Source: an uncultured Desulfobacter sp. (GTDB taxonomy: Bacteria > Desulfobacterota > Desulfobacteria > Desulfobacterales > Desulfobacteraceae). Taken from it: a stretch of DNA of 64,000 bases. The translations under genes were made by a program, and so were the position numbers. Shown here piece by piece: positions 13,475-64,000 of the stretch (its first letter is position 1; each line of letters begins with the position of its first letter). The stretch is taken from the NCBI GenBank assembly GCA_963665095.1, contig OY762069.1, forward strand, positions 3,264,001-3,328,000, in the 5' to 3' direction. The notes beneath the pieces are model-generated. The model searched no databases, had not been told where the DNA came from, and saw nothing but the letters and a program-made list of their open reading frames with translations.

Positions 13475-14446
13475 TCAGGTCCGCTTAAGATTTCTGGCAT
13501 ATCCGGTTTCAGGATCGGCCTGGATCATCTCCAGGCGGGACGCGCCAACTTTTTCCATGAGCGCTGCGTGGTCAGCCGTACCCATTATAAACTCCTCTAT
13601 ATATTGGGCATGTGTTGCGTCGTCCGTGGCCTTTTCCTTGTACTGGTTCAGATAGACAGGATCATAATCATAATACCTGTAGCAGGCCGTGGGGTAAGCG
13701 CCATAGGGAACATGGGCCACGGCATCCACATAGAAATGAGGGATCTGATTCAGATCAGACTGCTGTTTCATCTCATCGGGTGACACCAGTTCCTCACAGG
13801 TGACGATCAGGGCCTTGGCCGCCTTGGCCTGCTCCACATCGGCAAAGGTCAGCCCGTTGATCTGGCAGGTACCCTGGGTATCGGCCTTCTGGACATGAAT
13901 GAGGGTCACATCCGGATTAATGGCCGGCACCAGCACCAGCTTTTGGGTTCCGGCCCATCCGGGAAAGGGATTATTCATCAGCATCAGTTTCTCATCCGGC
14001 AGCTTGGGGTCATCTGCACGCATCTCCTTTGAAAATCCCCACTTCTCGATCACCTGGGTGCCCATGCCGGATCTCACCGGCATAAAGGGCAGTCCCATGG
14101 CCCCGGCCTGGAACCGCATGGTCATGTGATAGTTGGAATAATCCTCCACCAGCAGCTGTTTATCCCGGACCAGCTTTTTAAACCGGATGCAGGTGGGGGC
14201 AAACCGTCCATTGCCCCCATAGGCGATTTCAAGCTTGCTCAAAAGACCTGCCCCGGCCAGTTCATCCATGCCCTGGCCGTTGGAATGGGCATACATATGC
14301 AGGTCTTTTTTCCCCTGGCGGATAATCTCGTATACTGCTGCCATGGGATTGCGGTTCACCGTGAACCCGCCAATGGATATATGGCAGCCGTTGTGCACAA
14401 ACCTGTCAACGGCAGTGGACAGGTCCATTACTTTCTCGTTTGTCAT
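13475..14446 (-). CDS. gctA: Family I CoA-transferase subunit A
   Basis: IGGFTVNRNPMAAVYEIIRQ, RFQAGAMGLPFMP, PDVTLIHVQKAD, PYGAYPT. Confidence 0.8.
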   Translation of the reverse strand: MTNEKVMDLSTAVDRFVHNGCHISIGGFTVNRNPMAAVYEIIRQGKKDLHMYAHSNGQGMDELAGAGLLSKLEIAYGGNGRFAPTCIRFKKLVRDKQLLVEDYSNYHMTMRFQAGAMGLPFMPVRSGMGTQVIEKWGFSKEMRADDPKLPDEKLMLMNNPFPGWAGTQKLVLVPAINPDVTLIHVQKADTQGTCQINGLTFADVEQAKAAKALIVTCEELVSPDEMKQQSDLNQIPHFYVDAVAHVPYGAYPTACYRYYDYDPVYLNQYKEKATDDATHAQYIEEFIMGTADHAALMEKVGASRLEMIQADPETGYARNLKRT

Positions 14447-14465
14447 ATTCTATACTCTCCTGTCC

Positions 14466-15779
14466 CTAAACCATCATGCTGGGCAGCCATGTTACCAGCC
14501 CCGGAAAAATCATAATCAATGCAATGGTCAAAACATCTAAGGCGATAAATGGGATGGCCGCCCGGAACAGTGCTCCGAGCTTCATCTCATCGGGCATCAG
14601 CCCTTTGACAATATACAGGTTCAACCCCATGGGCGGCGAAATATTTCCTGCGCACATATTAACAGCCATAAGAATGCCGAACCATAAAATATTGATCTCA
14701 AGGGCATTTAAAATAGGCAAAATAATGGGCGTTGTCATCATAACAATGGCAGCCGGGTCCAGGAACATTCCCATGACCAGAAAACCAAACATCAAAATAA
14801 TCACCACCGCATAGTTGGGAAGCGGCAAAGAGACAACCCAGTCCGTCAGTTCCGCCGCACACCCCGAATAGATGATCACATAGCCGAAGGAGGTGGCGCC
14901 AATGATGATCCAACCGATCATGGCCGTGGTCCTTACCGTATGCAAAAGCGCCTTGCGGGTGGTTTTAAGATCCAGGCTGCGTTTGATCAGTGCAATGGCA
15001 AACACAGCCATGCAGGCAATGGCACTGGCCTCGGTGGGGGTGGCCACCCCTGTATAAATGGTAAACAGCAGGATCAGAATCACCAGCAGCAGCGACCAGA
15101 CCTTCCATAGGGAGCGAAATTTCTCTTTCCAGGTAAACCGGGTGTCATCCCTGGGCGCCACTTCCGGATCCAGCTTCACCCGGATGAAGATATAGGCCAG
15201 GGCAAGGCCGGTCATCAGGATGCCAGGGATGATGCCACCGGCAAACAAGGCGCCGATGGACTCATTGGCCAGGGTGCCGTAAAGAATCAAAATGACACTG
15301 GGCGGGATCAGAATGGAAAGCGCCCCGGAAAAGGCCACAATGGCCCCGGACATACCGGCCTGGTACTGGCGTTTGATCATCTCGGGCAATGAGAGCAGCC
15401 CCACGGTGGCGGTGCCGGCGGTACTGGCCCCGCACACGGCCCCGAAAATGGCCCCGAACACAGCCGATGTCATGCCAAGGCCACCGGGAAGCCGTCGTAA
15501 AAACCGGTCTGCCACCTCATAGGAATCGGTTCCCATGCGGCTGTGCATGACCAGCTGGGCCATGAGAATAAACAGGGGCACACACACAAGGGTATAGTTG
15601 CCCATGTGCCCGTATCCTGCCAGGGCCACCCCGTAAAGCCCGGTGGTGCCGGGCCAGAAGACCAGGGCCGCCAGCACGCTCAAGAACCCCAGGGAAAAGG
15701 CAACGGGAAGCCCCAGGAAGAGAAACAGTGTCAAAGATCCCACAAGAATCAGAAGTACAATATACCATTCCATGATCAT
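14466..15779 (-). CDS. dctM: TRAP transporter large permease
   Basis: Polytopic; LVCVPLFILM, LIPPS, GVATPTEA, ISPPMGLNLY. Confidence 0.92.
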   Translation of the reverse strand: MIMEWYIVLLILVGSLTLFLFLGLPVAFSLGFLSVLAALVFWPGTTGLYGVALAGYGHMGNYTLVCVPLFILMAQLVMHSRMGTDSYEVADRFLRRLPGGLGMTSAVFGAIFGAVCGASTAGTATVGLLSLPEMIKRQYQAGMSGAIVAFSGALSILIPPSVILILYGTLANESIGALFAGGIIPGILMTGLALAYIFIRVKLDPEVAPRDDTRFTWKEKFRSLWKVWSLLLVILILLFTIYTGVATPTEASAIACMAVFAIALIKRSLDLKTTRKALLHTVRTTAMIGWIIIGATSFGYVIIYSGCAAELTDWVVSLPLPNYAVVIILMFGFLVMGMFLDPAAIVMMTTPIILPILNALEINILWFGILMAVNMCAGNISPPMGLNLYIVKGLMPDEMKLGALFRAAIPFIALDVLTIALIMIFPGLVTWLPSMMV

Positions 15780-51384: not shown

Positions 51385-52227
51385 AATTTTTCTTATTTCA
51401 ATCATGACTTAATGCTGTCTTGAAAAGAGCTTCTTCTGGGTTCTTTATTGCTGAAATAATATTTTCGGCAATCTTATCTATTAGTTTTTGCCCCCAAAAT
51501 GGATCTTTCATATCATAGTAAATTACTCTTATATGGTTAAGATCAAAAGGAACATCTTCTTCATTGGAAGAAACTAAAACCACTGGCTTTTGAAGAGCAT
51601 GTGCTAAACCAAGTTCATAAAACACATTAGCATTTCTGGATGTTAGTTCAGCTACTAGCACTTTTGATGTTGTTATGCCTTTCCAGATTTGATCAATAAT
51701 TTTTCCTGTTGAAAAAATGTCATCATCTGCTCGTATTGGGGTAAGCCCTGCTTTTTCAATAGCAGGCTTATAAATAAGAGAGTAATAGCCACCCAATGGT
51801 TCTGCAAAGGGCATCATTACAAAGCATGTGTCATTTATATTTACCTTAACACCTTTTCCAATGGTCTTAAGTCGGCTATCCTTATCATCGTTAAATCCGT
51901 TTGAGGAAGCAGTTACATCTAATAACCAATAAGGATTGATGCGACCTGACAAGGTCGCTTTCAATCCATTGTTCAAGAAGCCCGGGTTTCATATGGGTAA
52001 AGATTGATTGTGGTGCAGGCGGGGTAGGCAAGCACAGGGTGGAAATTGATAAAAAGTGCTTGCCGGTATGCTTTAACTTTTCAATTTTGAATAATTTTGA
52101 CGTCGTTCTTTGAAAAACAGGACAGGTTCAGGGTTCGTTTTTCGGCCGCAGGACGTACTCGTCCCTGACGGTTCAGAAAACCGTTAAAAAACATGTATCC
52201 TAAAACCCGTTCCCTTTACGTTGAAGC

Positions 52228-53328
52228 CTATCCGAACCCAAAATCAGGCAACGGTAAGGGGCGGATATAGTAGATGTGACATCTGAGCTTGAGGCCCGCC
52301 CCGCATTCCGGGCAAATTGGCTTTGGCGAAGATTTGGGTGTTTCTATAGGCCGCTGTTCTTTGAACCCCAGGGTTGACTGGATAAGTGAACGGATTCGTT
52401 CAAGCGGGATGGAAGATCCCGGTCCCATGAAGCCATAATATCGGATTTTCATAAATCCTGTGGGCAGGACATGCTGAAGGAACCTGCGCATAAATTCCAT
52501 TGTATCAAGGGTCATTTTCCGCAGGCGCCGGCTGCCGGGCTTTTTATAATGGAACATCACCTTCTGCTGATCGTAATGGATAATCCGGTAGTCGGAAATC
52601 GCCACTTTGAACACATAGGGGGCCAGGTATTTGATACTGTGGTGACTGGAAACGGCCTGGGAATTTACGTTGAACGGCTTTGACCAGACGTCCGGAGCAA
52701 TACTTTGAAGTATTCCGGCCGTATTCAGCTGGGTTTTAAGCTTTGCTCTGAACACCTTGGACATGGCTTTGACCGGAGCGAAGAAGGCCGGACGGCAGGG
52801 ATGCCATTTGCCGTCGGTCCGGGAATATGCTCCGCCGGGAACAACATAATGGATGTGCGGATGATACTGCATGGTCCGTCCCCAGGTGTGAAGGACTCCA
52901 AAAAAGCCGGGCAGATCACCGCCGATGAATTTGCTGTCCCTGGCAAAGGCTTTAAGTGTCTGTGAGGATGCCGCAAACAGTGCCGCATAGGCCTCCTTCT
53001 GGTTGCTTCGAAACAGAGCGCGCAATTGTTCCGGGATGGTAAATGTTATCAGAAAATGAGGGCCCGGCAGTTGTCGTTCCAGCTGCCGGTCACGCCACTG
53101 GCGGGTTTTATGGTACTGGCATATGGGGCAGTGACGGTTTCCACAGGAACGAAAACCGAAATGTATCCGGCCGCAGCCGGTACAATCATAGACCACCAGG
53201 CCGCAGGCAGACGTCCGGCAGGAAATGATTGCCTTCAAGGCTTTTATGTGATTTTTTGGAATGCGGGTTTTATACCGATGGAGGTATTCCCGGGCTGACC
53301 GGGCAAAAATGTTTTGAATGGCTCCCAT
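52228..53328 (-). CDS. IS91-family Y2 (HUH) transposase with Zn-binding domain
   Basis: [42 protein letters not shown]. Confidence 0.95.
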   Translation of the reverse strand: MGAIQNIFARSAREYLHRYKTRIPKNHIKALKAIISCRTSACGLVVYDCTGCGRIHFGFRSCGNRHCPICQYHKTRQWRDRQLERQLPGPHFLITFTIPEQLRALFRSNQKEAYAALFAASSQTLKAFARDSKFIGGDLPGFFGVLHTWGRTMQYHPHIHYVVPGGAYSRTDGKWHPCRPAFFAPVKAMSKVFRAKLKTQLNTAGILQSIAPDVWSKPFNVNSQAVSSHHSIKYLAPYVFKVAISDYRIIHYDQQKVMFHYKKPGSRRLRKMTLDTMEFMRRFLQHVLPTGFMKIRYYGFMGPGSSIPLERIRSLIQSTLGFKEQRPIETPKSSPKPICPECGAGLKLRCHIYYIRPLPLPDFGFG

Positions 53329-53330
53329 GG

Positions 53331-54200
53331 CTACACCTCCTTCATCAGATCATTGATAAGTCCGCAGGCGTGTTCATGCCCCTGGGTGGTCAGATGCAGG
53401 TAAACCATGGTGGTGGTCAGACTGCTGTGGCCCAGATACTGCTGGATGCGCCGGATGTTGACACCTGCTTCGAGCAGATGGGTGGCGTAGCTGTGGCGAA
53501 GGGTGTGGATGGTGACCCGTTTTGTGATGGGCAAAGAGGTCAGTGTCTGTCTCAGGGCTCCCCTGACGGAATTGCTCCTCATGGGTTCTTCTGCTGTTGA
53601 GGCTTCTTTGCCGTTGCGTCCAAGTTTTGGAAAGATCAGTTTGGGGTTGCGATGGGTGGCCCAGTATTCACGCAGAATAAAAAGTGTCTTTTCAGGCAGC
53701 GGCACGTATCGGTCCTTTGCGCCTTTGCCCCGATGGACATGGATGAACATGCGCTGGCTGTCAATGTCCCTGACCTGGAGGCTCAATCCCTCATTGAGCC
53801 TGAGACCGCAGGAGTAGACAGTGGTCAGGTAGGCTTTGTTCCAGGGTGTCCGGACAGCAGTAAGAATGGACTTAACCTCGTTAATACTGAGTACGGATGG
53901 TAACCGCTGTTCCCGTTTGGCATTAATCAGGGCAAGCGTATGCCAGTCCCGCTGCAGCACATTGATGAAGAAGAACTTTATGCCGCTGTAGCAGATACGC
54001 ATGGTGGCGGCAGACCATTGATCAACGTTTTTGCGATGGAGAAAATAATCCTGCAGTTCCCGCTCGGTGATTTCATCAGGGGTTTTGCCGAAGAAATCGA
54101 CCAGCATACGGATAGCGCGGGTGTAGTTCTTTTGAGTGGAAGTGCTCATCCCGGCAAGTTGCAGGGCCCTCATTGATTGTTGATAATAATCGCTCATCAT
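53331..54200 (-). CDS. Tyrosine recombinase (IntI-related, lacking the IntI-specific insertion)
   Basis: [34 protein letters not shown]...VY. Confidence 0.93.
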
Positions 54201-55054
54201 ACCGTCTCCTTTCATGTGAAGGGTTAATTGGATTGGCGTCCAGATACGATACGATGAAAATGACGGGCAATGCAACTTGCCGATTTTATTAATTAGAGTA
54301 GTTGTTTGGCTGCCGCGTAGCGGCTTACTTGAACCTTATCTTACCTCCCTTTTCTTCTATAAGTTTTGCATAATTTAAGGTGTCAGTGAAAATACTTATA
54401 AAATCAGACAATGATGCCTCTGGTATATTAAATTTGTCTATCAGGGCATTTTTGAAAAATTCTTCGTCGGGCAAATTTTCCCCACGATAGTGTTCGTAAA
54501 CATCTGAGATATCGGGGGCATTCTTAACAGCTTTTCTTAGGCCATTTAAAACATCTTCAGGATTTTGGGGGCGAAGTATCTGCCTTGAAATGTCTGTTAG
54601 TTCCAAATGGCCTGTTTTAGGCCGTGTAAGAAGGCCATATTTAATACAAGAACTTAATTCAGACGTATATGGTCCTTTATTATATTTTACACCTACGAAG
54701 GTTGCAGATTCTTGTTCCGTACAACCTCGCCCTGCATTTTGATCGAAAATGGCTTTCGGAATGCGCAATGCTTTTTCTAAATTATGTCGAGGGTATTTAG
54801 GAGAATGTGAAGAGCTCTTCTTAGGTTTAGATTTTTTAGGGGATATGGGTGCATTGCTTTTTGAAGAAATGCCAGACCTTGATTTTATGTTTCGGACATA
54901 GGAAGATTTAATATCTCTTCCCAACTCTTTAAAATGGTCAACAATTTCTTGATTTGTCTTTTTAGGATTATCTTTCAAAAAATTTCGTACCATTTCAGCA
55001 GTACTAATAGAAGAGTTGTCTGTATCAACCATTAAATCCTCCTTATGTTGTAAA

Positions 55055-55112
55055 CCCGAACGTAAAGTTGAGTGGCGAGCTTCAGCGAGCCCACTCGAAC
55101 GCCTTGTTGGGC
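55055..55112 (-). other. attC site
   Basis: GCCCAAC-5-GTTCGAGT...ACTCAAC-5-GTTCGGG. Confidence 0.92.
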
Positions 55113-55915
55113 ATATTTTCCATTCTTATCAAATCTTCCAACGTCCATAGCATTATTGTTGGTTCAATTTCTTCGACAAAGAATTTTGCTGATTTTGTAA
55201 ATGGAGCACTGGATATAACAATACCTGTAGGTATTTGTTCTAATGCCATTGATCCAACAAGTTGTCGAATAACGGAAATGGGTACTTGTGATGTGGTTTT
55301 ATATTTTTTCACCTCAACAATGGCTCTGCTATTTTGAAAAGGATGAACAATAAAATCGTATCCATAATCTTTTAGATGCGACTGATGTTCAACGTTGTAG
55401 CCTTTTTTTATAAACCACTGACCAACTAGTTCCTCAAATTCTTGAGCATCAATATTGTCTATGATTTCAGGTCGTTCAAGTAATGTTACTATGCTGTTAC
55501 GAGGATTTTCAGGGTCTAACCCCGAGTAGGGTTCTCGTTCTACATGAGAAGATAATATGTTTTCAACATGAGCCAACAAGTCGTAATGACTAGAATCCCT
55601 AGAAAAGTAACGCATACTTCTTAAATCAAAAGGAATATCATGTATATCAGCAACAACGATAATTTTCTTGTTTTGCCCAAGTGCATAACCTAATTCGAAC
55701 ATAACGTTGGCGTTATTGGGCTGTAAAAAGCAAATAAACAATGAACATTTATTGATCTTTTCAGTGATTGCATGATTAAGCTCACTACCAATACATGTTT
55801 CATCACATAATTCAAATGATTCAGCCCCAATTGATGGAAGATGATCATTAAGAAAACACGCAAACCTCTGTGCTTCGTAATCGTTGTAGGAATATGAAAA
55901 GAAAACTCGTTTCAT
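55082..55915 (-). CDS. TIR/NDT-like domain fused to an Mrr-type restriction endonuclease
   Basis: VFFSYS, NANVMFELGYA; EFEELV...DYGYDF...VEVKKY...IRQLVG. Confidence 0.8.
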   Translation of the reverse strand: MKRVFFSYSYNDYEAQRFACFLNDHLPSIGAESFELCDETCIGSELNHAITEKINKCSLFICFLQPNNANVMFELGYALGQNKKIIVVADIHDIPFDLRSMRYFSRDSSHYDLLAHVENILSSHVEREPYSGLDPENPRNSIVTLLERPEIIDNIDAQEFEELVGQWFIKKGYNVEHQSHLKDYGYDFIVHPFQNSRAIVEVKKYKTTSQVPISVIRQLVGSMALEQIPTGIVISSAPFTKSAKFFVEEIEPTIMLWTLEDLIRMENMPNKAFEWAR

Positions 55916-56263
55916 GACCTGACCTCCTTAGCCCGATACAAAGCCCAAAATTCATAAAGGGCTGATTGCTTGGCATTTACATCATCTGCTGTTTCAGTTC
56001 CAAACCTACAAAAAGACTCAAGCATTCGGTTACATTCTTGAAAACGTGTATCCAGAATTTCGTTGATCTCCTTATCCAATCTATCTGTAATTTTGGGGCG
56101 TAACTCATTTATTTCTTGATCTGATTGAGAATGATCACAAAAAATCATGGAAAAATTAAAGATAATTTGCAAGATATGCCAGGGATGAGGCAGAAGCTCC
56201 CCCGTTTATCTCGCAAATAATCAATGGAACTTCTGCCCCTATTACCCTAACAGGGCAGGAGAT

Positions 56264-56839
56264 ATGCTATCAGAACTTATTAAAAACAAAAATCTTTTTT
56301 TCCATCTTTACGAAATCGATAAAAATACAGCAAAACAGTACAGACAGTTGCCTTGTCCGCATTGTGGAGGCCCCTTATATTTCAGCAATTACATGCGCAA
56401 GCCCCGGGGAGAGCCTGAGGGCGTGCCGGAGGAATTCTTTATTCAGTTCAGCCTATGTTGTGGAACCGAAGGGTGTCGCAAAAGATTGATGCCGCCGTCC
56501 TGCCGTTTTCTGGGGAGAAAAGTCTACTGGTTTGCAGTTATTCTGTGTGTTTTAACAGACTGGCAAAATACCAATGAAAAAATCACCGTTTATGATTTGT
56601 CCATACGAACTGGCATTAGCCGGAACACAATAAACCGCTGGCTTGCCTTTTTTCAGGATACATTTCCAGTGAGCCGAACCTGGCGAAGGCTTCGGGGGCA
56701 GATATCCGCTGGTGTCAGTAACAGCCGTCTGCCGTCAAGTTTCATCAATTATTGCCGGGCGGTGAAATCCAACGCCGAAAACGCACTTGTATCAAGCCTG
56801 ATAATCTTATCAGGCGGGTCCAAAATCAGGGCCGGATAA
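56264..56839 (+). CDS. Zn-finger/HTH accessory protein of TnB
   Basis: CPHCGG, SLCC..EGCRKR..PPS.RFLGRKVY, ISRNTINRW. Confidence 0.75.
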   Translation: MLSELIKNKNLFFHLYEIDKNTAKQYRQLPCPHCGGPLYFSNYMRKPRGEPEGVPEEFFIQFSLCCGTEGCRKRLMPPSCRFLGRKVYWFAVILCVLTDWQNTNEKITVYDLSIRTGISRNTINRWLAFFQDTFPVSRTWRRLRGQISAGVSNSRLPSSFINYCRAVKSNAENALVSSLIILSGGSKIRAG

Positions 56840-56945
56840 TCTCGCGCAGAGGATGAACATAGACAAATATATGCAGGCTGTTTTACCACCTGATTTCAGA
56901 CGTTGATCCGAAATTTTAACCTGAAATTAAAAAGGAGCCTGATTT

Positions 56946-58391
56946 ATGAGTGGTAAAACACAGCACCCGGCAGACCTGTGGGCATTATTTCGCTTTTCGG
57001 TTATCGGCGGTTTACTGGCACGCCCTCCGGCAAAGGGAGAGTTGCAAAATGAACTGACCCGGCTCGCAGGTCAAATCTATTCTCATCCTGTGACGAACAA
57101 ACCGACCTGTTTTCATTTTTCCACAATTGAGGCCTGGTATTACAGGGCAAAAAATTGCCAGGACCCAATTCTGGCTCTGGGCCGTAAAGTTCGTTCAGAT
57201 ATGGGCAAATCCACAGCATTGAATGCTGAATTGATCCGCCTTCTTGGTGTCCAGTACAACACTTATCCGCAATGGAGCTATCAGCTTCATTGCGACAACC
57301 TGGCAGCTGAAATCGCTGAACAGGGCCTGTGTGAGAATCCGCCGTCCTATGCAAGTGTGAGAAGGCGTATGGTTGAACGGGGTTGGAGAAAAAAGGCTTC
57401 CAAGAACAAAAATCAAACATCCGGACAGAAATCAGCTTTTAAGCGATTAGAAACGTATGAAGTCCGTAGTTATGAAACCGAAAACATCCATGAATTATGG
57501 CATCTGGACTTTCACGAATGCAGCAGGCGCGTGGTGGACGAAAAAGGTCAGTGGCATACGCCCAAGGCATTGTGCATTCTTGATGATCGCTCCCGTCTGT
57601 GTTGTCATATTCAATGGTATTTGAATGAAACGGCAGAGGTTTTGATCCACGGCTTGTCCCAGGCGTTTTACAAAAGAGGGCTTCCCAGAGCCTTGATGAC
57701 AGATAATGGTTCTGCCATGATTGCTCATGAAACCGGCAACGGACTTAAACGATTGGGCGTCAGTCATGAGACCACGTTGCCATACTCGCCCTATCAAAAT
57801 GGGAAGCAGGAAGCCTTTTGGGGTACACTTGAAGGCCGTTTGATCGCCATGCTGAGCCGGATGGATTCTTTGACCCTGGTATATTTAAATCAGGTCTCCC
57901 AGGCCTGGATCGAGATGGAATACAACAAGTCAACCCATGATGAAATTCATATGTCGCCATTGCAATGCGCCCTTGACGGCAAGGATGTGTCACGTCCTGC
58001 ACCGGAACCTGAACAGCTTCAATTTTCGTTTACAGCCTGTGAATCCAGAAAACAGCGTCTGTCCGATGGTACCATCTCTTTGATGGGCATCCGGTTTGAA
58101 ATCCCTTCACGGTTTAATCATATCCAGCGTCTTCATGTCTGTTTTTGCTCCTGGGATAAATCGGTTGCCTGGCTGATAGATAAACGAACCGGAAATAAGC
58201 TTGCCGCAATTTATCCCCAGGACAAGACAAAGAATGCTTCAGCAATCCGTCGTATCAAATCCACTCCGGATGAAATTAACCCTGGCCATGAAACCCTGTC
58301 CGGATCAGAACCGGCCCTGCTTAAAAAGCTCTTGTCCGATTATGCAGCAACCGGAATGCCTTGTGCCTACTTGCCAATGGAGGAAAAGTGA
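56946..58391 (+). CDS. DDE (rve) transposase
   Basis: WHLDFH, LDDRSR, MTDNGS, NGKQEAFW. Confidence 0.92.
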   Translation: MSGKTQHPADLWALFRFSVIGGLLARPPAKGELQNELTRLAGQIYSHPVTNKPTCFHFSTIEAWYYRAKNCQDPILALGRKVRSDMGKSTALNAELIRLLGVQYNTYPQWSYQLHCDNLAAEIAEQGLCENPPSYASVRRRMVERGWRKKASKNKNQTSGQKSAFKRLETYEVRSYETENIHELWHLDFHECSRRVVDEKGQWHTPKALCILDDRSRLCCHIQWYLNETAEVLIHGLSQAFYKRGLPRALMTDNGSAMIAHETGNGLKRLGVSHETTLPYSPYQNGKQEAFWGTLEGRLIAMLSRMDSLTLVYLNQVSQAWIEMEYNKSTHDEIHMSPLQCALDGKDVSRPAPEPEQLQFSFTACESRKQRLSDGTISLMGIRFEIPSRFNHIQRLHVCFCSWDKSVAWLIDKRTGNKLAAIYPQDKTKNASAIRRIKSTPDEINPGHETLSGSEPALLKKLLSDYAATGMPCAYLPMEEK

Positions 58392-59215
58392 TGAACAGCA
58401 AACGATTATTGGCTTATTATGGATTGAAGTACAATCCTTTTTTACCAAATATTCCTGTGGACTCATTATGGCATCCACCCCGGATGGAGGCATTTATTAC
58501 ACGCCTTGAAAATATGACCATGAACGGTGGATTTGCATTAATCGCCGGTGAACCCGGTCTTGGCAAATCCAAGACACTACAGGCGATTGCCCATCAGCTT
58601 GGCAAGCTTGATGAAGTCGTTGTCGGCGTTATGGAGCGCCCCCAAAGCAGCGTGGCCGATTTCTATCGGGAAATGGGGACACTGTTTGGTGTCAATTTGA
58701 GTCCGGCCAACCGTTACGGAGGGTTCAAAGATCTGCGGCAACGATGGAAAAATCATATTAAAACAACCCTGTTCAGACCCGTCCTGCTCATTGATGAGGC
58801 TCAGGAAATGCTTACCGGATGCCTGAATGAGCTTCGGTTGCTCAACAGTATGGATTTTGACTCCCAGAATTTATTGACCACCATTATCTGTGGTGATACC
58901 CGGCTGCCGGAACGGTTCAGAACCAGTGCATTGGTAGCCCTGGGGAGTCGACTCCGGTTCCGGTTAAAATTGGATCCTTATACCCGGGAAGAATTGTTGG
59001 ATTATATAGCGCATTGCCTAAATCAGGCCGGAGCTCCTCAACTCATGACAAAACCTTTAATCACCGCTTTGGTAGAGCACTGTACAGGAAACTTACGGGT
59101 CCTCAATAATATGTCGGCAGAACTGCTTGAAGTGGGCGTTCAAAGAGAGCTGCCGCAACTGGATGAGAAACTTTTCATAGAGCTTTTTTCACTGAAACCG
59201 TCGCCAACCAGATAA
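58391..59215 (+). CDS. ExeA/AAA_22 ATPase
   Basis: GEPGLGKS, LLIDEAQ. Confidence 0.9.
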   Translation: MNSKRLLAYYGLKYNPFLPNIPVDSLWHPPRMEAFITRLENMTMNGGFALIAGEPGLGKSKTLQAIAHQLGKLDEVVVGVMERPQSSVADFYREMGTLFGVNLSPANRYGGFKDLRQRWKNHIKTTLFRPVLLIDEAQEMLTGCLNELRLLNSMDFDSQNLLTTIICGDTRLPERFRTSALVALGSRLRFRLKLDPYTREELLDYIAHCLNQAGAPQLMTKPLITALVEHCTGNLRVLNNMSAELLEVGVQRELPQLDEKLFIELFSLKPSPTR

Positions 59216-59226
59216 GAGGTATAAAA

Positions 59227-59469
59227 ATGACAATCAATGAAACACAACTTGAAAAAACAATGGCTGAAATTGTCGACGAGCTGGGCAATCTGGTCATGGA
59301 GTTGATCCTTGTCAGTTTAAAAAAAATAAACTCGGAAAATCATCTTTTGACAGAATTGCTGGAGATCAAACAAGAGGAACAAAGAGAAAATGAATTTTAT
59401 GGTTTTGGTGAAACGGAGCCGGGACATCCTGGGGAGGAAACCCGGCAAGGGATAGCCAAAAGCAGGTAG
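59227..59469 (+). CDS. Small acidic hypothetical protein in TnB
   Basis: GAGG RBS; 3' end runs into the conserved module shared with TnA. Confidence 0.45.
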   Translation: MTINETQLEKTMAEIVDELGNLVMELILVSLKKINSENHLLTELLEIKQEEQRENEFYGFGETEPGHPGEETRQGIAKSR

Positions 59470-60332
59470 CATTGAATAATGCGCCGGGGGAAGCGGGGTT
59501 GACCTGCTTCCCCTTTCTGTATTATTCAAGCTTTCCTGCTCATGCCTTAAAAAACCCAATAAAATCAGTCGGAGCGCAGCGACATCTGCTAATCATTGAA
59601 AATACAGTTATGCCTTTCCCTGATTTATCCTGATTGTCGCTCCATTGATTATCGTGCTTCCTCTCAGATTTACCGACATACTGCTTTTGAATTGTGACTG
59701 TCCAGCCTTTACATGATGAATGAGACCAAGTGGAAGGATGAGCTCTAAACTCAGTTCCGAGGGTTTCGAATGATGAATTCAATAATTTGCCAATTTCAGC
59801 CCCGCGCCACGGTAATGCCCCCAATTCTGGAGTTTTAAGGGATTCCATATCATAAATGAACAATTCTCCGGAATCTGTTAACCTTAGAATTGAATCAATG
59901 AATATATTAGCGAAAGCTCCTGGCTGTAATTCATGAGCTGTATTGGTGCAGGTTATGAAATCGAATCGGTGGTCATTGTTGATGATTTTGTTAAAATCGG
60001 ACAAATCTCCATGTAAAAAGGCGTATTCCTTAAACTTTAATCCGTCTGCCATCCTTTCCGCTGTTCGAGTATGATCTACATTTATATCGTATCCAAAATA
60101 TGAAAGCTTTGCTCTGTGTGTCAAAGATAAGTTTTCATTAAGTTGAGAGATGATTTGTCCTTTACCACATGCCAAATCAAGCCAGCATAATTTGCCAACA
60201 GCAGGATTTTGAAGACGACTATTCAACAAAGTTAATGCTGATTGATGTTGAGGTAAAATTCGCCTTATATCATGTGTAGCATCCGAATCAGCAATCGATG
60301 ACATAAGATTTCCTTGTGTTTATTTGTTTTGA

Positions 60333-60404
60333 GCCCAACGTGGCCATCACCGGTTGCTATGGAGCGCTAGCGGATTAGCAATCCGGTGCATGGCATGGTT
60401 AGAT
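60333..60404 (-). other. attC site
   Basis: ATCTAAC-5-CATGCACC...GGTGATG-5-GTTGGGC. Confidence 0.92.
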
Positions 60405-61541: not shown

Positions 61542-61667
61542 ATCTAACGTGAAGTTCAGCCGCCCGGGGCTTGTGCCGAGCAGATTGTAAAAGCCAAATT
61601 TTTTCGAAAACCGAGCACTTTCAAAAGGCCGCTAGCACACCGGGTCGGCTGCAACGGCTTGTTCAAG
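61542..61667 (-). other. attC site whose inverse core is the end of IS91-type element B
   Basis: CTTGAAC-5-GTTGCAGC...GCTGAAC-5-GTTAGAT. Confidence 0.9.
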
Positions 61668-61792
61668 TAAGCGCTACGCGCAGGCTCCGCCTCGCAGCAT
61701 TGTTCAATTACATTGCTCATGGTATCTTCTAATTACCGGTTTGCAGGTCGGTATCTTCCGCCCGACAAGGTTAAAGAAGAAAGGAAGATACC

Positions 61793-62667
61793 ACGAGCAA
61801 ATTAATCAAACGTTTTAAAGAAGACCTCCAGTTAGCAGGATATGCTGACCGCAGCATTCAATCCTATACCGGCGCAGTTTTAAAGCTGCAGCGGTTTTAC
61901 AATCAACCCTTAGAAGATATCAGCGAAGAACAGCTGCGTCAATATTGGCTTAGCTGTCAAAACGAACTTGGCTGGAGTGCAGCCACACTGCGTATCAGTT
62001 ATTCCGGCATCCAACATTTTTTCAGCAGAACCCTGGTCAGATCCTGGAACCTTTTCAACGAAATCCAATGGAAGCGCGAGGAGACCTTACCAACTATTCT
62101 GAGCCTGGAGGAAGTCAGGAAAATTATATATGCCCTTCCCACCGTACAAAGTTATACATTTTATTTGACCTTATATTCCATGGGCCTGCGTTTGAGGGAA
62201 GCAACAACGCTTCAGGTCAAGGATATCCTTTCTGACAGGGGACTTGTGCATATTCACGGAGGAAAGGGTTACCGGGACAGGACCGTCCCCTTACCCCCAA
62301 TAACCCTGTCGGCTTTGCGAGACTACTATAAAACCCATCGCAATTCTAAATGGATTTTCCCTGCCCTGGGCCGCAATGGCGGTAAAGATGCCCAATATGC
62401 CGAAAATCATGTGAGCCAAAGTGGTGTTCAAGGCGTTTTACGATCCACTTTAAAACGCATGAAGTTTAAAAAACATGTCCACCTCATGTATTCCGCCATG
62501 CCTATGCAACTCATCTGCTCGAAGCCAATATCCCCATACGGCATGTTCAAAAAATATTGGGTCATAAAACCCTTAAAAGTACCATGATTTATCTGCATGT
62601 GACCACACAGGCCCGGGTTGATTCCAATGACAGGGTTTCCAAAGTCATGCAGGGGGTGTTGTCATGA
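61793..62667 (+). pseudogene. Tyrosine recombinase of element B (ACG start, frameshift)
   Basis: ACG-SKLIKRFKEDLQLAG; YSMGLRLRE, GKGYRDR; 1-nt loss at ~62483 before [13 protein letters not shown]...LGH...IY. Confidence 0.85.
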
Positions 62668-63749
62668 GCGCCATTCAAAAAATCTTTCAGATGTATGGCG
62701 CCCAATATATGGCACTTTATGGGGATCGAATGCCCAAGGCCCATAAAAAAACCATCCGGGATATCATTCAGTGCCGAAGCGGCTCCTTTGGTACAATGGT
62801 GTATGAATGCAGCGACTGCAAAAATCTGCATCTGATCCACTGCTGCTGCGGCAACCGCCATTGCCCCAACTGTCAACAGAGTAAAGCAGATCAATGGCTT
62901 GTTCAGCAAATGAAAAAATTGCTGCCGACTCACTATTTTTTGTTAACGATCACACTGCCGCAAGGTCTTCGGGACGTTGTAAGATCACATCAAAGACAAA
63001 CCTACAGCGCCCTGTTTTCATGCACCAATAAAGCATTGAAAAAATTAGCACAAGACAAGCGGTTTGTCGGATCGGACCAAATTGGATACCTGGCCGGTCT
63101 CCACACATGGGGCGGCATGCTCCAGTATCACCCCCATTTACATCTGATCATCCCCGGTGGTGCTTTATCCGGTAAAAACCTATGGCTTGCTTCCAGGCAG
63201 GATTTATTTGTTCACACAAAACCCTTGGAGATTATTTTCAAAGCCAAATTCAAGAATGCGATGAAAAAAGCCGGACTGCTCAACAAAATTGATCCGGCCG
63301 TCTGGAAACAGCAGTGGGTGATTGACAGCCAATCCGTGGGGCAGGGACAAAATTGCCTGCGATATCTTTCAAGATATGTTTTCCGGGTGGCCATCTCCAA
63401 TAACCGCATCAAAAGCATTGAAAATGGTGTCATTAAATTTTCGTACAAGGATCGTGAAAAGAAAAAATGGAAAACCATGGCTCTGGATGCCATGGAATTT
63501 ATCAGAAGGTTCTTGCAACATGTTCTTCCCAAGGGATTTATGAAAATCCGGCATTATGGATTTCTTAATCCCAACAGTGCATTACCCATTGAAAAAATCC
63601 GTGAACTGATCTCATTCATCCATGACATTATTGCGCTTTTTACTGAAATCCGGGAGCCTGCAATCCCCGGCATTAAATGCAGCCATTGCGGACATGATTT
63701 GAAATTCATTTTCTTTGTAAAACCTGAATCCCGGGGCAAACCCCGGTAA
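62664..63749 (+). CDS. IS91-family Y2 (HUH) transposase
   Basis: [36 protein letters not shown]. Confidence 0.95.
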
Positions 63750-64000
63750 CTGCACATTTTTTTGACCCGGTTTGGGCCTTTTTTACAAACAGCCTGATCT
63801 ATCACCAGGCATGTTGCGCTATTCGTGCGCAATATTGCAGCTACCTAAGGTTTTGAACCGGGTTTTAACAACTGAAAATCGGCTGGGCTTCTGGTTTTCA
63901 CATCAAAAGAAAGGCCGTTTTTTAAGTTTTCATCAGACCTGATCATTAACCCATCCAGAAAACCGGTAACCTTTCCCCCTATACACCCGCGGCTTCTTGA

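Follow-up and report, generated by a model that had tools for sequence, protein, structure and literature searches.

How did a two-gene mobile element come to lie inside an integron array, facing against it and abutting an attC site exactly at its R'' box? This question is raised by the end of the window, the 64,000-nt stretch of an uncultured Desulfobacter sp. genome analysed here (G000:C1:3264001-3328000), in which two elements, A and B, each pair an IS91-family transposase gene with a tyrosine recombinase gene that overlaps it. The original prediction was that symmetric, core-like ends allow this family to enter arrays in either orientation, or that its target is the R'' box of attC, as it is for group IIC-attC introns. 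Judged by its limits, hairpin, site, orientation and covarying ends, element B is a two-gene mobile element inserted backwards at the AAC/GTT core of the R'' box of a host attC (Table 1).

Table 1. Element B, element A and neighbouring features, in window coordinates unless indicated otherwise.
Feature	Position	Strand	Description
Cassette gene of ~408 codons with TIR-like C-terminal part	51398..55032	-	Split by element A at GTT; off-target, without attC
Element A, window copy (A1)	51926..54333	-	2408 bp; recombinase 53331-54200 intact, transposase 52228-53328, terminal hairpin 51926-51970
Next host attC	60337..60400	-	End of the M23-peptidase cassette that lies downstream of element B; establishes which way the array runs
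Host attC without its former R'' flank	61542..61661	top strand = -	R' GTTAGAT 61548-61542; member of a genome-wide attC repeat family; outside the element
Element B (B1)	61662..64000 in window, to 64056; G000:C1:3325662-3328056	+	2395 bp; limits from copy comparison
Left end, terIS-like	61662..61681	+	Small palindrome; on the opposite strand, CTTG directly before AAC
Tyrosine recombinase gene	61793..62667	+	Phage_int_SAM_4 + Phage_integrase type; damaged; overlaps transposase start (ATGA)
IS91-family HUH/Y2 transposase gene	62664..63749	+	361 aa, open frame; HUH and YxxxY motifs; PF04986, PF14319; NF033538 352 bits (cut-off 125)
CCTATA motif inside right end	63978..63983	+	Kept in the family, at varying distance
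Right core GGCTTCTTGA(AC)	63991..64000	+	Complementary to left end
DNA past the window edge	L001:8001-8062		AC, then element-owned terminal hairpin (window-equivalent 64003-64056), then displaced host R'' (64056-64062)

The limits of element B, which overruns the window edge by 56 bp, were set by comparison with a second copy (B2, G000 925.9-928.3 kb), whose flanks differ from those of the window copy (B1). The element extends from the TT of a left GTT to the G of a right GTT, the cut position being ambiguous inside the shared GTT. Across the two copies of element B and three of element A in the source genome, shared sequence stops at GTT on the right in every copy and at the TT of GTT on the left, where an intron now stands in front of A2. 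The recombinase end of element B adjoins the host attC at its R'' core and now provides the R'' of that site. The attC itself is not co-mobile with the element, since the sites beside B1 and B2 differ at seven positions, as many as the entire element bodies, and since it belongs to the repeat family.

On the other side, the DNA past position 64,000 reads AC, a hairpin (z of about -4.8, 0/200 shuffles) and then GTTATGC, and the original prediction had anticipated such an AC followed by a hairpin. The hairpin belongs to the element because it is present in both B copies while the flank beyond GTT differs. In the upstream cassette, a 320-aa ORF terminates at 64069. The GCATAAC after it is an R'' box, to which the element hairpin is now attached; together, this displaced box and the remaining attC indicate a single attC split by element B at its R'' core. 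The overall folding energy of 61542-61667 is unexceptional (z of -1.25 and -1.43), and its extra L-box base lies on the + strand 3' arm, which makes + the bottom strand and places the array on -. Other attC sites near element B also carry the extra base on this arm, in a scan that lists chance matches too, and element B, on +, is thus opposite to the array.

The observations from which the original prediction started all hold: GTTCAAGTAAGC and GGCTTCTTGA occur in both elements, the stem-loop is present (GCGC-TAC-GCGC, 61671-61681), and 61542-61667 has attC architecture. GTTCAAGTAAGC is found at 61661-61672 (+) and 54323-54334 (-), two matches against 0.24 expected, a count reached in 2/100 shuffles, while GGCTTCTTGA is exact at 63991-64000 (+) and 51973-51982 (-), although by itself this 10-mer is at chance level when one mismatch is allowed (7 vs 5.6). 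The proteins of A and B are diverged, as had also been noted, with identities of 46% between the recombinases and 42% between the transposases.

In B1, ACG stands in the start-codon position of the recombinase gene (61793), and a one-base frameshift around 62481 leaves 264 codons instead of 291. The ACG is found in both B copies, against ATG in 10/11 relatives examined, and the catalytic set (R-K-H-R-H-Y) is intact in element A and in the B2 frame, with B1 frameshifted before the tyrosine. An assembly error is unlikely, because a contig of one sequencing run matches B1 without a gap and two others have the unshifted allele. A programmed frameshift was considered and, for element B, rejected: B2 and 7/11 relatives have a single open frame (six of 291 codons, one open to the locus end), and the unshifted allele occurs in the two other runs. 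Copy B1 is probably non-autonomous, and its damaged recombinase was probably active earlier or complemented by element A. A promoter scan returned hits at chance level (5 vs 4.6).

Four of the five copies in the source genome lie at an attC R'' opposite to the array, B2 and A3 with the same layout as B1. In A2, the host attC and the element are separated by a group II intron (IIC type, as judged by eye), which is inserted at GT/TCAAG, the spot given for IIC-attC introns in PMC7923331. Group II introns lie at attC R'' sites at L120:15150-17060 and L002:4750-6660, one of them directly before A2, where two parasites thus share a single site. The three A copies are identical over 2412 bp and built like element B, with their own hairpin at the transposase end. 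The contrast originally drawn, of a hairpin at the transposase end in A and an attC at the recombinase end in B, was correct as read but does not hold as a contrast, since B has its own transposase-end hairpin too; the apparent asymmetry comes from the window edge and one off-target copy. That copy, A1, is the exception among the five, and it points with the array because it landed inside a cassette gene instead of at an attC. It has no attC at its left end, the halves of the split gene are in frame over 408 codons, and the three homologs aligned (401-406 aa) are continuous across the insertion site. A hairpin considered at the A1 target was rejected, as it folds weakly (-4 kcal/mol).

Elsewhere in the genome, an orphan 51-bp perfect copy of the A hairpin (G000:C1:2928254-2928304; L123:4254-4304) ends at a GTT core and occupies an attC position, downstream of a 124-aa ORF and before a two-gene cassette (94 and 72 aa). 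This suggests, without proving it, that the element hairpin can act as an attC once the body is lost. In related runs, A and B junctions with flanks absent from G000 were observed (L124:3834 and 13558), two of which look like attC by eye; they suggest that closely related strains carry additional insertions. The three extra junctions had no exact empty site in G000 and one match with two mismatches. Neither a circle junction nor an empty-site joint was present in the contigs of four runs, contig assembly being a step that drops rare forms.

The surrounding array contains several other features. The source genome has an intact integron integrase gene at 910-911 kb and a split one at G000 3348.7-3354.7 kb. 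The latter is the array's own intI, split by inserted DNA (L002:8672-9264 and 14339-14683), so that, without help in trans from the second intI, the array may be frozen. About 2.5-4 kb past the window edge, a transposase-only IS91 element (L001:10452-12150) lies in cassette orientation right after an attC core; three more partial or full copies exist, and a TGA interrupts the zinc-binding region. In window 51398-55915, the TIR-like domain of the cassette gene knocked out by element A has a weak PADLOC match, and the cassette beside it (55082-55915) combines TIR and Mrr-like nuclease domains; the TIR-type cassettes of this region are possibly defence cassettes. Between A and B, inside the array, lies a multi-copy insertion sequence (window 56200-59670; rve transposase + AAA ATPase, at least 12 copies), which we take to be IS21-like.

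We collected relatives at 112 loci from genomes, plasmids and metagenomes, with 97 left ends, 93 of them distinct. Left flanks shorter than 150 nt (25 of 93) were set aside (7 still scored), leaving 68 scorable flanks, 41 of which carry a bottom-strand attC, one a weak top-strand attC, and 26 none. The same detector called 182/20000 genome GTT sites (0.9%) and 177/11409 locus GTT sites (1.6%). It had replaced a first detector with a fixed 5-nt spacer, which called 14 sites and missed known ones; 41/68 is likely a floor, as the second detector still misses sites that are attC-like by eye. Kinship among the loci means that they are not independent, and these same data, with the variants already seen, served to tune the end patterns. 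A G precedes TT in 91/93 left ends, and also in the off-target A1, and the composition of the left flanks matches the attC L'' signature, with T at -12 in 74/87 and A at -9 in 77/87. Oriented targeting of the attC R'' box is thus well supported, in line with the intron-like targeting originally envisaged, whereas entry in either orientation through symmetric ends is not supported, with 41 bottom-strand sites against one weak top-strand site. For one relative, found between aadA1 and qacEdelta1 of a class 1 integron that an E. coli plasmid carries, the two flanks of the element are contiguous in an uninterrupted copy of the same attC (56/56 bases), split exactly at R''.

Of 58 distinct complete right ends, 53 have a hairpin followed by GTT, three a hairpin without GTT, and two no hairpin as called by script; the other loci comprise six without a right core, 46 cut or without a transposase end, and two duplicates. 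A CC(C/T)(T/A)TA-like motif, close to the one originally noticed just inside the right ends of A and B, lies 11-42 nt inside 52/58 right ends vs 8% background, a figure inflated by the motif having been written after the ends were seen. The six loci that have a transposase end but no right core include relatives in Herpetosiphon, Mesorhizobium and Clostridium, beside which no attC was seen, so the attC habit is not family-wide. The transposase lies downstream of the recombinase in 66/67 loci with room for it, and at least 7740 recombinase homologs were found at E 1e-50 (8000 scored). Decayed forms were also observed by eye at attC-like sites, namely a mini-element with both ends, a body reduced to ~30 nt, and a hairpin that adjoins the core with nothing in between; the non-autonomous mini-element and the collapsed relics (L026:5448-5720, L132, L136) are of the B lineage. 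At one contig end (L004:3094-3200), the terminal hairpin occurs twice in tandem, possibly through an assembly artefact or self re-insertion.

Within the family, the left end can pair over 11-12 nt with the right core, which is located 55 nt inward of the true end, and the two covary: paired cores are complementary in 44/49 cases, with both sides changed in two lineages (three loci and one locus), and computed end junctions have folding energies of -24 to -28 kcal/mol. At the left end, AAC is preceded by CTTG in 87, GTTC in five and CTCG in one of the 93 distinct cases, a pattern-biased count, and these three tetranucleotides make up the IS91 cleavage set reported in PMC13181058. The same source gives the bottom single-stranded circle as the functional IS91 intermediate, and a target tetranucleotide (CTTG/GTTC/GTCC) adjacent to oriIS as a requirement of IS91; at 51 right junctions of the present family, host tetranucleotides are of 28 kinds, with three junctions of IS91 type. 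An internal GTTC at the right core was rejected as an IS91 origin, as gammaproteobacterial relatives have GTTG there. The travelling hairpin, with spacers of 3-4 vs 5-7 nt, is ~3 bases out of register with a canonical attC.

The six catalytic residues of the recombinase (R-K-H-R-H-Y), the set expected of the tyrosine recombinase superfamily, are invariant in 119/119 homologs (at least 43% identity). The element recombinase is 29% identical to the host IntI, and does not include a ~24-residue stretch found at positions 182-215 of the latter, a stretch that IntI presumably needs for single-stranded attC. By score, the element recombinases also fall outside IntI, at 171 and 147 bits vs an IntI cut-off of 265 (TIGR02249), and their closest solved relatives are an XerC-like recombinase (4a8e), IntI4 and XerA; an AlphaFold model built from a four-sequence alignment was poor (pLDDT 51). 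According to PMC11641012, IntI cleaves within the AAC triplet and favours bottom strands, and for one attC recombination of the top strand with IntI was ~100-fold worse.

Based on these features, we propose a route to which we assign a probability of about 0.5. First, a circle would be cut out by the recombinase at the two GTT cores, and in this circle the left end would place palindrome-TTA-CTTG directly before AAC and the hairpin, forming an IS91-type nick site from which the HUH transposase would roll out antisense-strand single-stranded circles. The joined ends would then form a single long hairpin that includes an R-like box. Cuts by the recombinase at the AAC of this hairpin and, on the top strand of the host attC, at the AAC of the R'' arm would yield the reversed insertion. 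The element hairpin would thereby become a stand-in attC for the upstream cassette, and the element body would be bordered like a cassette. Reversed insertion at R'' is what top-strand cleavage would give. Against this route weigh the missing IntI stretch in the element recombinase, the register of the element hairpin, the poor top-strand recombination reported for IntI, and the lack of circle junctions in the contigs. As AAC is common to the target and both ends, sequence cannot separate a recombinase cut from a nearby HUH cut.

The latter possibility, in which strand transfer is the work of the HUH transposase, as it is in IS91, with cuts immediately 5' of AAC in both joined end and target, while the recombinase only guides it to the folded attC or resolves the product, seems to us rather unlikely, but deserves serious consideration. 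The left-end tetranucleotides before AAC match the IS91 set exactly, IS91 TnpA alone is reported to insert a bottom-strand circle (PMC13181058), and a transposase-only IS91 element is also present in these arrays. However, IS91 needs its tetranucleotide next to oriIS, a position at which the present family tolerates 28 kinds in 51, what is conserved in the target is found across the cut from that position, and the full conservation of the recombinase catalytic set argues for chemistry and not for binding alone.

That the host IntI would instead insert the element circle by rare top-strand attC recombination, with the element's enzymes only excising or copying it, we regard as quite improbable. 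The junctions do coincide with the IntI core, the source genome has an intact intI besides the split one, the orphan A hairpin stops at a GTT core, and IntI is reported to insert also at bare GWT sites (bioRxiv 10.1101/2022.09.11.507474), which fits the off-target A1. Yet the bottom-strand preference of IntI would give R' insertions in cassette orientation, the reverse of the 41 to 1 observed, and the element hairpin is non-canonical. An ordinary integron cassette with two reversed genes, or one entering either way through symmetric ends, is largely refuted and highly improbable: read on the array strand, the body does start with GTTCAAG and end with CTTGAAC and an attC, as a cassette would, but here it is the downstream attC that varies from copy to copy and the upstream hairpin that stays the same, opposite to what a cassette would show, and a well-known attC is split exactly at R'' while A1 splits a gene.

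Compared with known systems, the element behaves like an attC-targeting parasite and has an IS91 transposase. It resembles IS91 proper (IS91, IS801, IS1294, IS1294b) in its HUH/Y2 transposase above the NCBIfam cut-off (Y2_Tnp + Zn domain; NF033538), in an upstream ORF overlapping the transposase start, in the lack of target duplication beyond the shared GTT, and in a left end with a palindrome and CTTG/GTTC/CTCG, a terIS feature (PMC13181058) at which cleavage is predicted here from the motif. Two features of IS91 membership are lacking, namely a fixed target tetranucleotide and, as IS91 has no terminal inverted repeats, non-complementary ends; in addition, the upstream gene encodes a tyrosine recombinase and not Orf121, and the element has an extra terminal hairpin and a structure-specific target. 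ISShvi3 and ISSod25 carry a recombinase. The nearest published text is one remark on ISShvi3 beside an attC in PMC9229058.

Group IIC-attC introns use the same R'' box (TTGT/T, bottom strand), opposite to cassettes (PMC7923331, PMC3001079), but are RNA retroelements that insert by reverse splicing and bring no replacement hairpin. IS1111-attC elements (ISPa21, ISPst6) are found in the same region and orientation (PMC3001079), but use an RNA-guided DEDD transposase (PMC11187229) and have neither HUH enzyme nor tyrosine recombinase. With both groups the element shares insertion at or near R'' opposite to the array, while it encodes neither a reverse transcriptase nor a DEDD transposase. In the literature examined, only these introns and IS1111 elements are described as attC specialists, and we found no account of attC R'' targeting by elements such as B in the largely open-access literature searched. 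CTX-type phages integrate a folded single strand, and like integron cassettes with IntI they share with the element a tyrosine-recombinase core AAC/GTT and a folded single-stranded site. Cassettes and CTX are grouped as replication-linked tyrosine recombination in PMC9345347. Unlike in these systems, the element recombinase is self-encoded, below the IntI cut-off and without the IntI insertion, and the target is R'' and not R' or dif. Its downstream attC, unlike that of a cassette, does not travel, the constant hairpin lying upstream on the array strand, and the travelling hairpin lacks the 5-nt spacers and L'' extrahelical-base geometry of a canonical attC.

More broadly, we tentatively suggest, at somewhat short of even odds, that such elements are widespread two-enzyme integron parasites, in which single-stranded circles are produced by an HUH protein, the attC top strand avoided by integrons is recombined by the element's own enzyme, a relative of IntI that lacks the IntI insertion, and a mimic hairpin repairs the array and stays usable by the host integrase. 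If true, nature would offer a recombinase whose choice of attC strand is reversed, and the system could serve as a model for the origin of integron recombination. The window contributes a clean off-target insertion at a bare GTT, and the source genome an orphan hairpin. The family is large, occurs in hosts as far apart as sulfate reducers and E. coli, where a plasmid carries it in a class 1 integron, and rewrites attC sites on landing, so attC predictors can misdraw cassette borders at such insertions. These elements also make it testable what sets strand choice at attC, and what role the recombinase plays in IS91-like elements.
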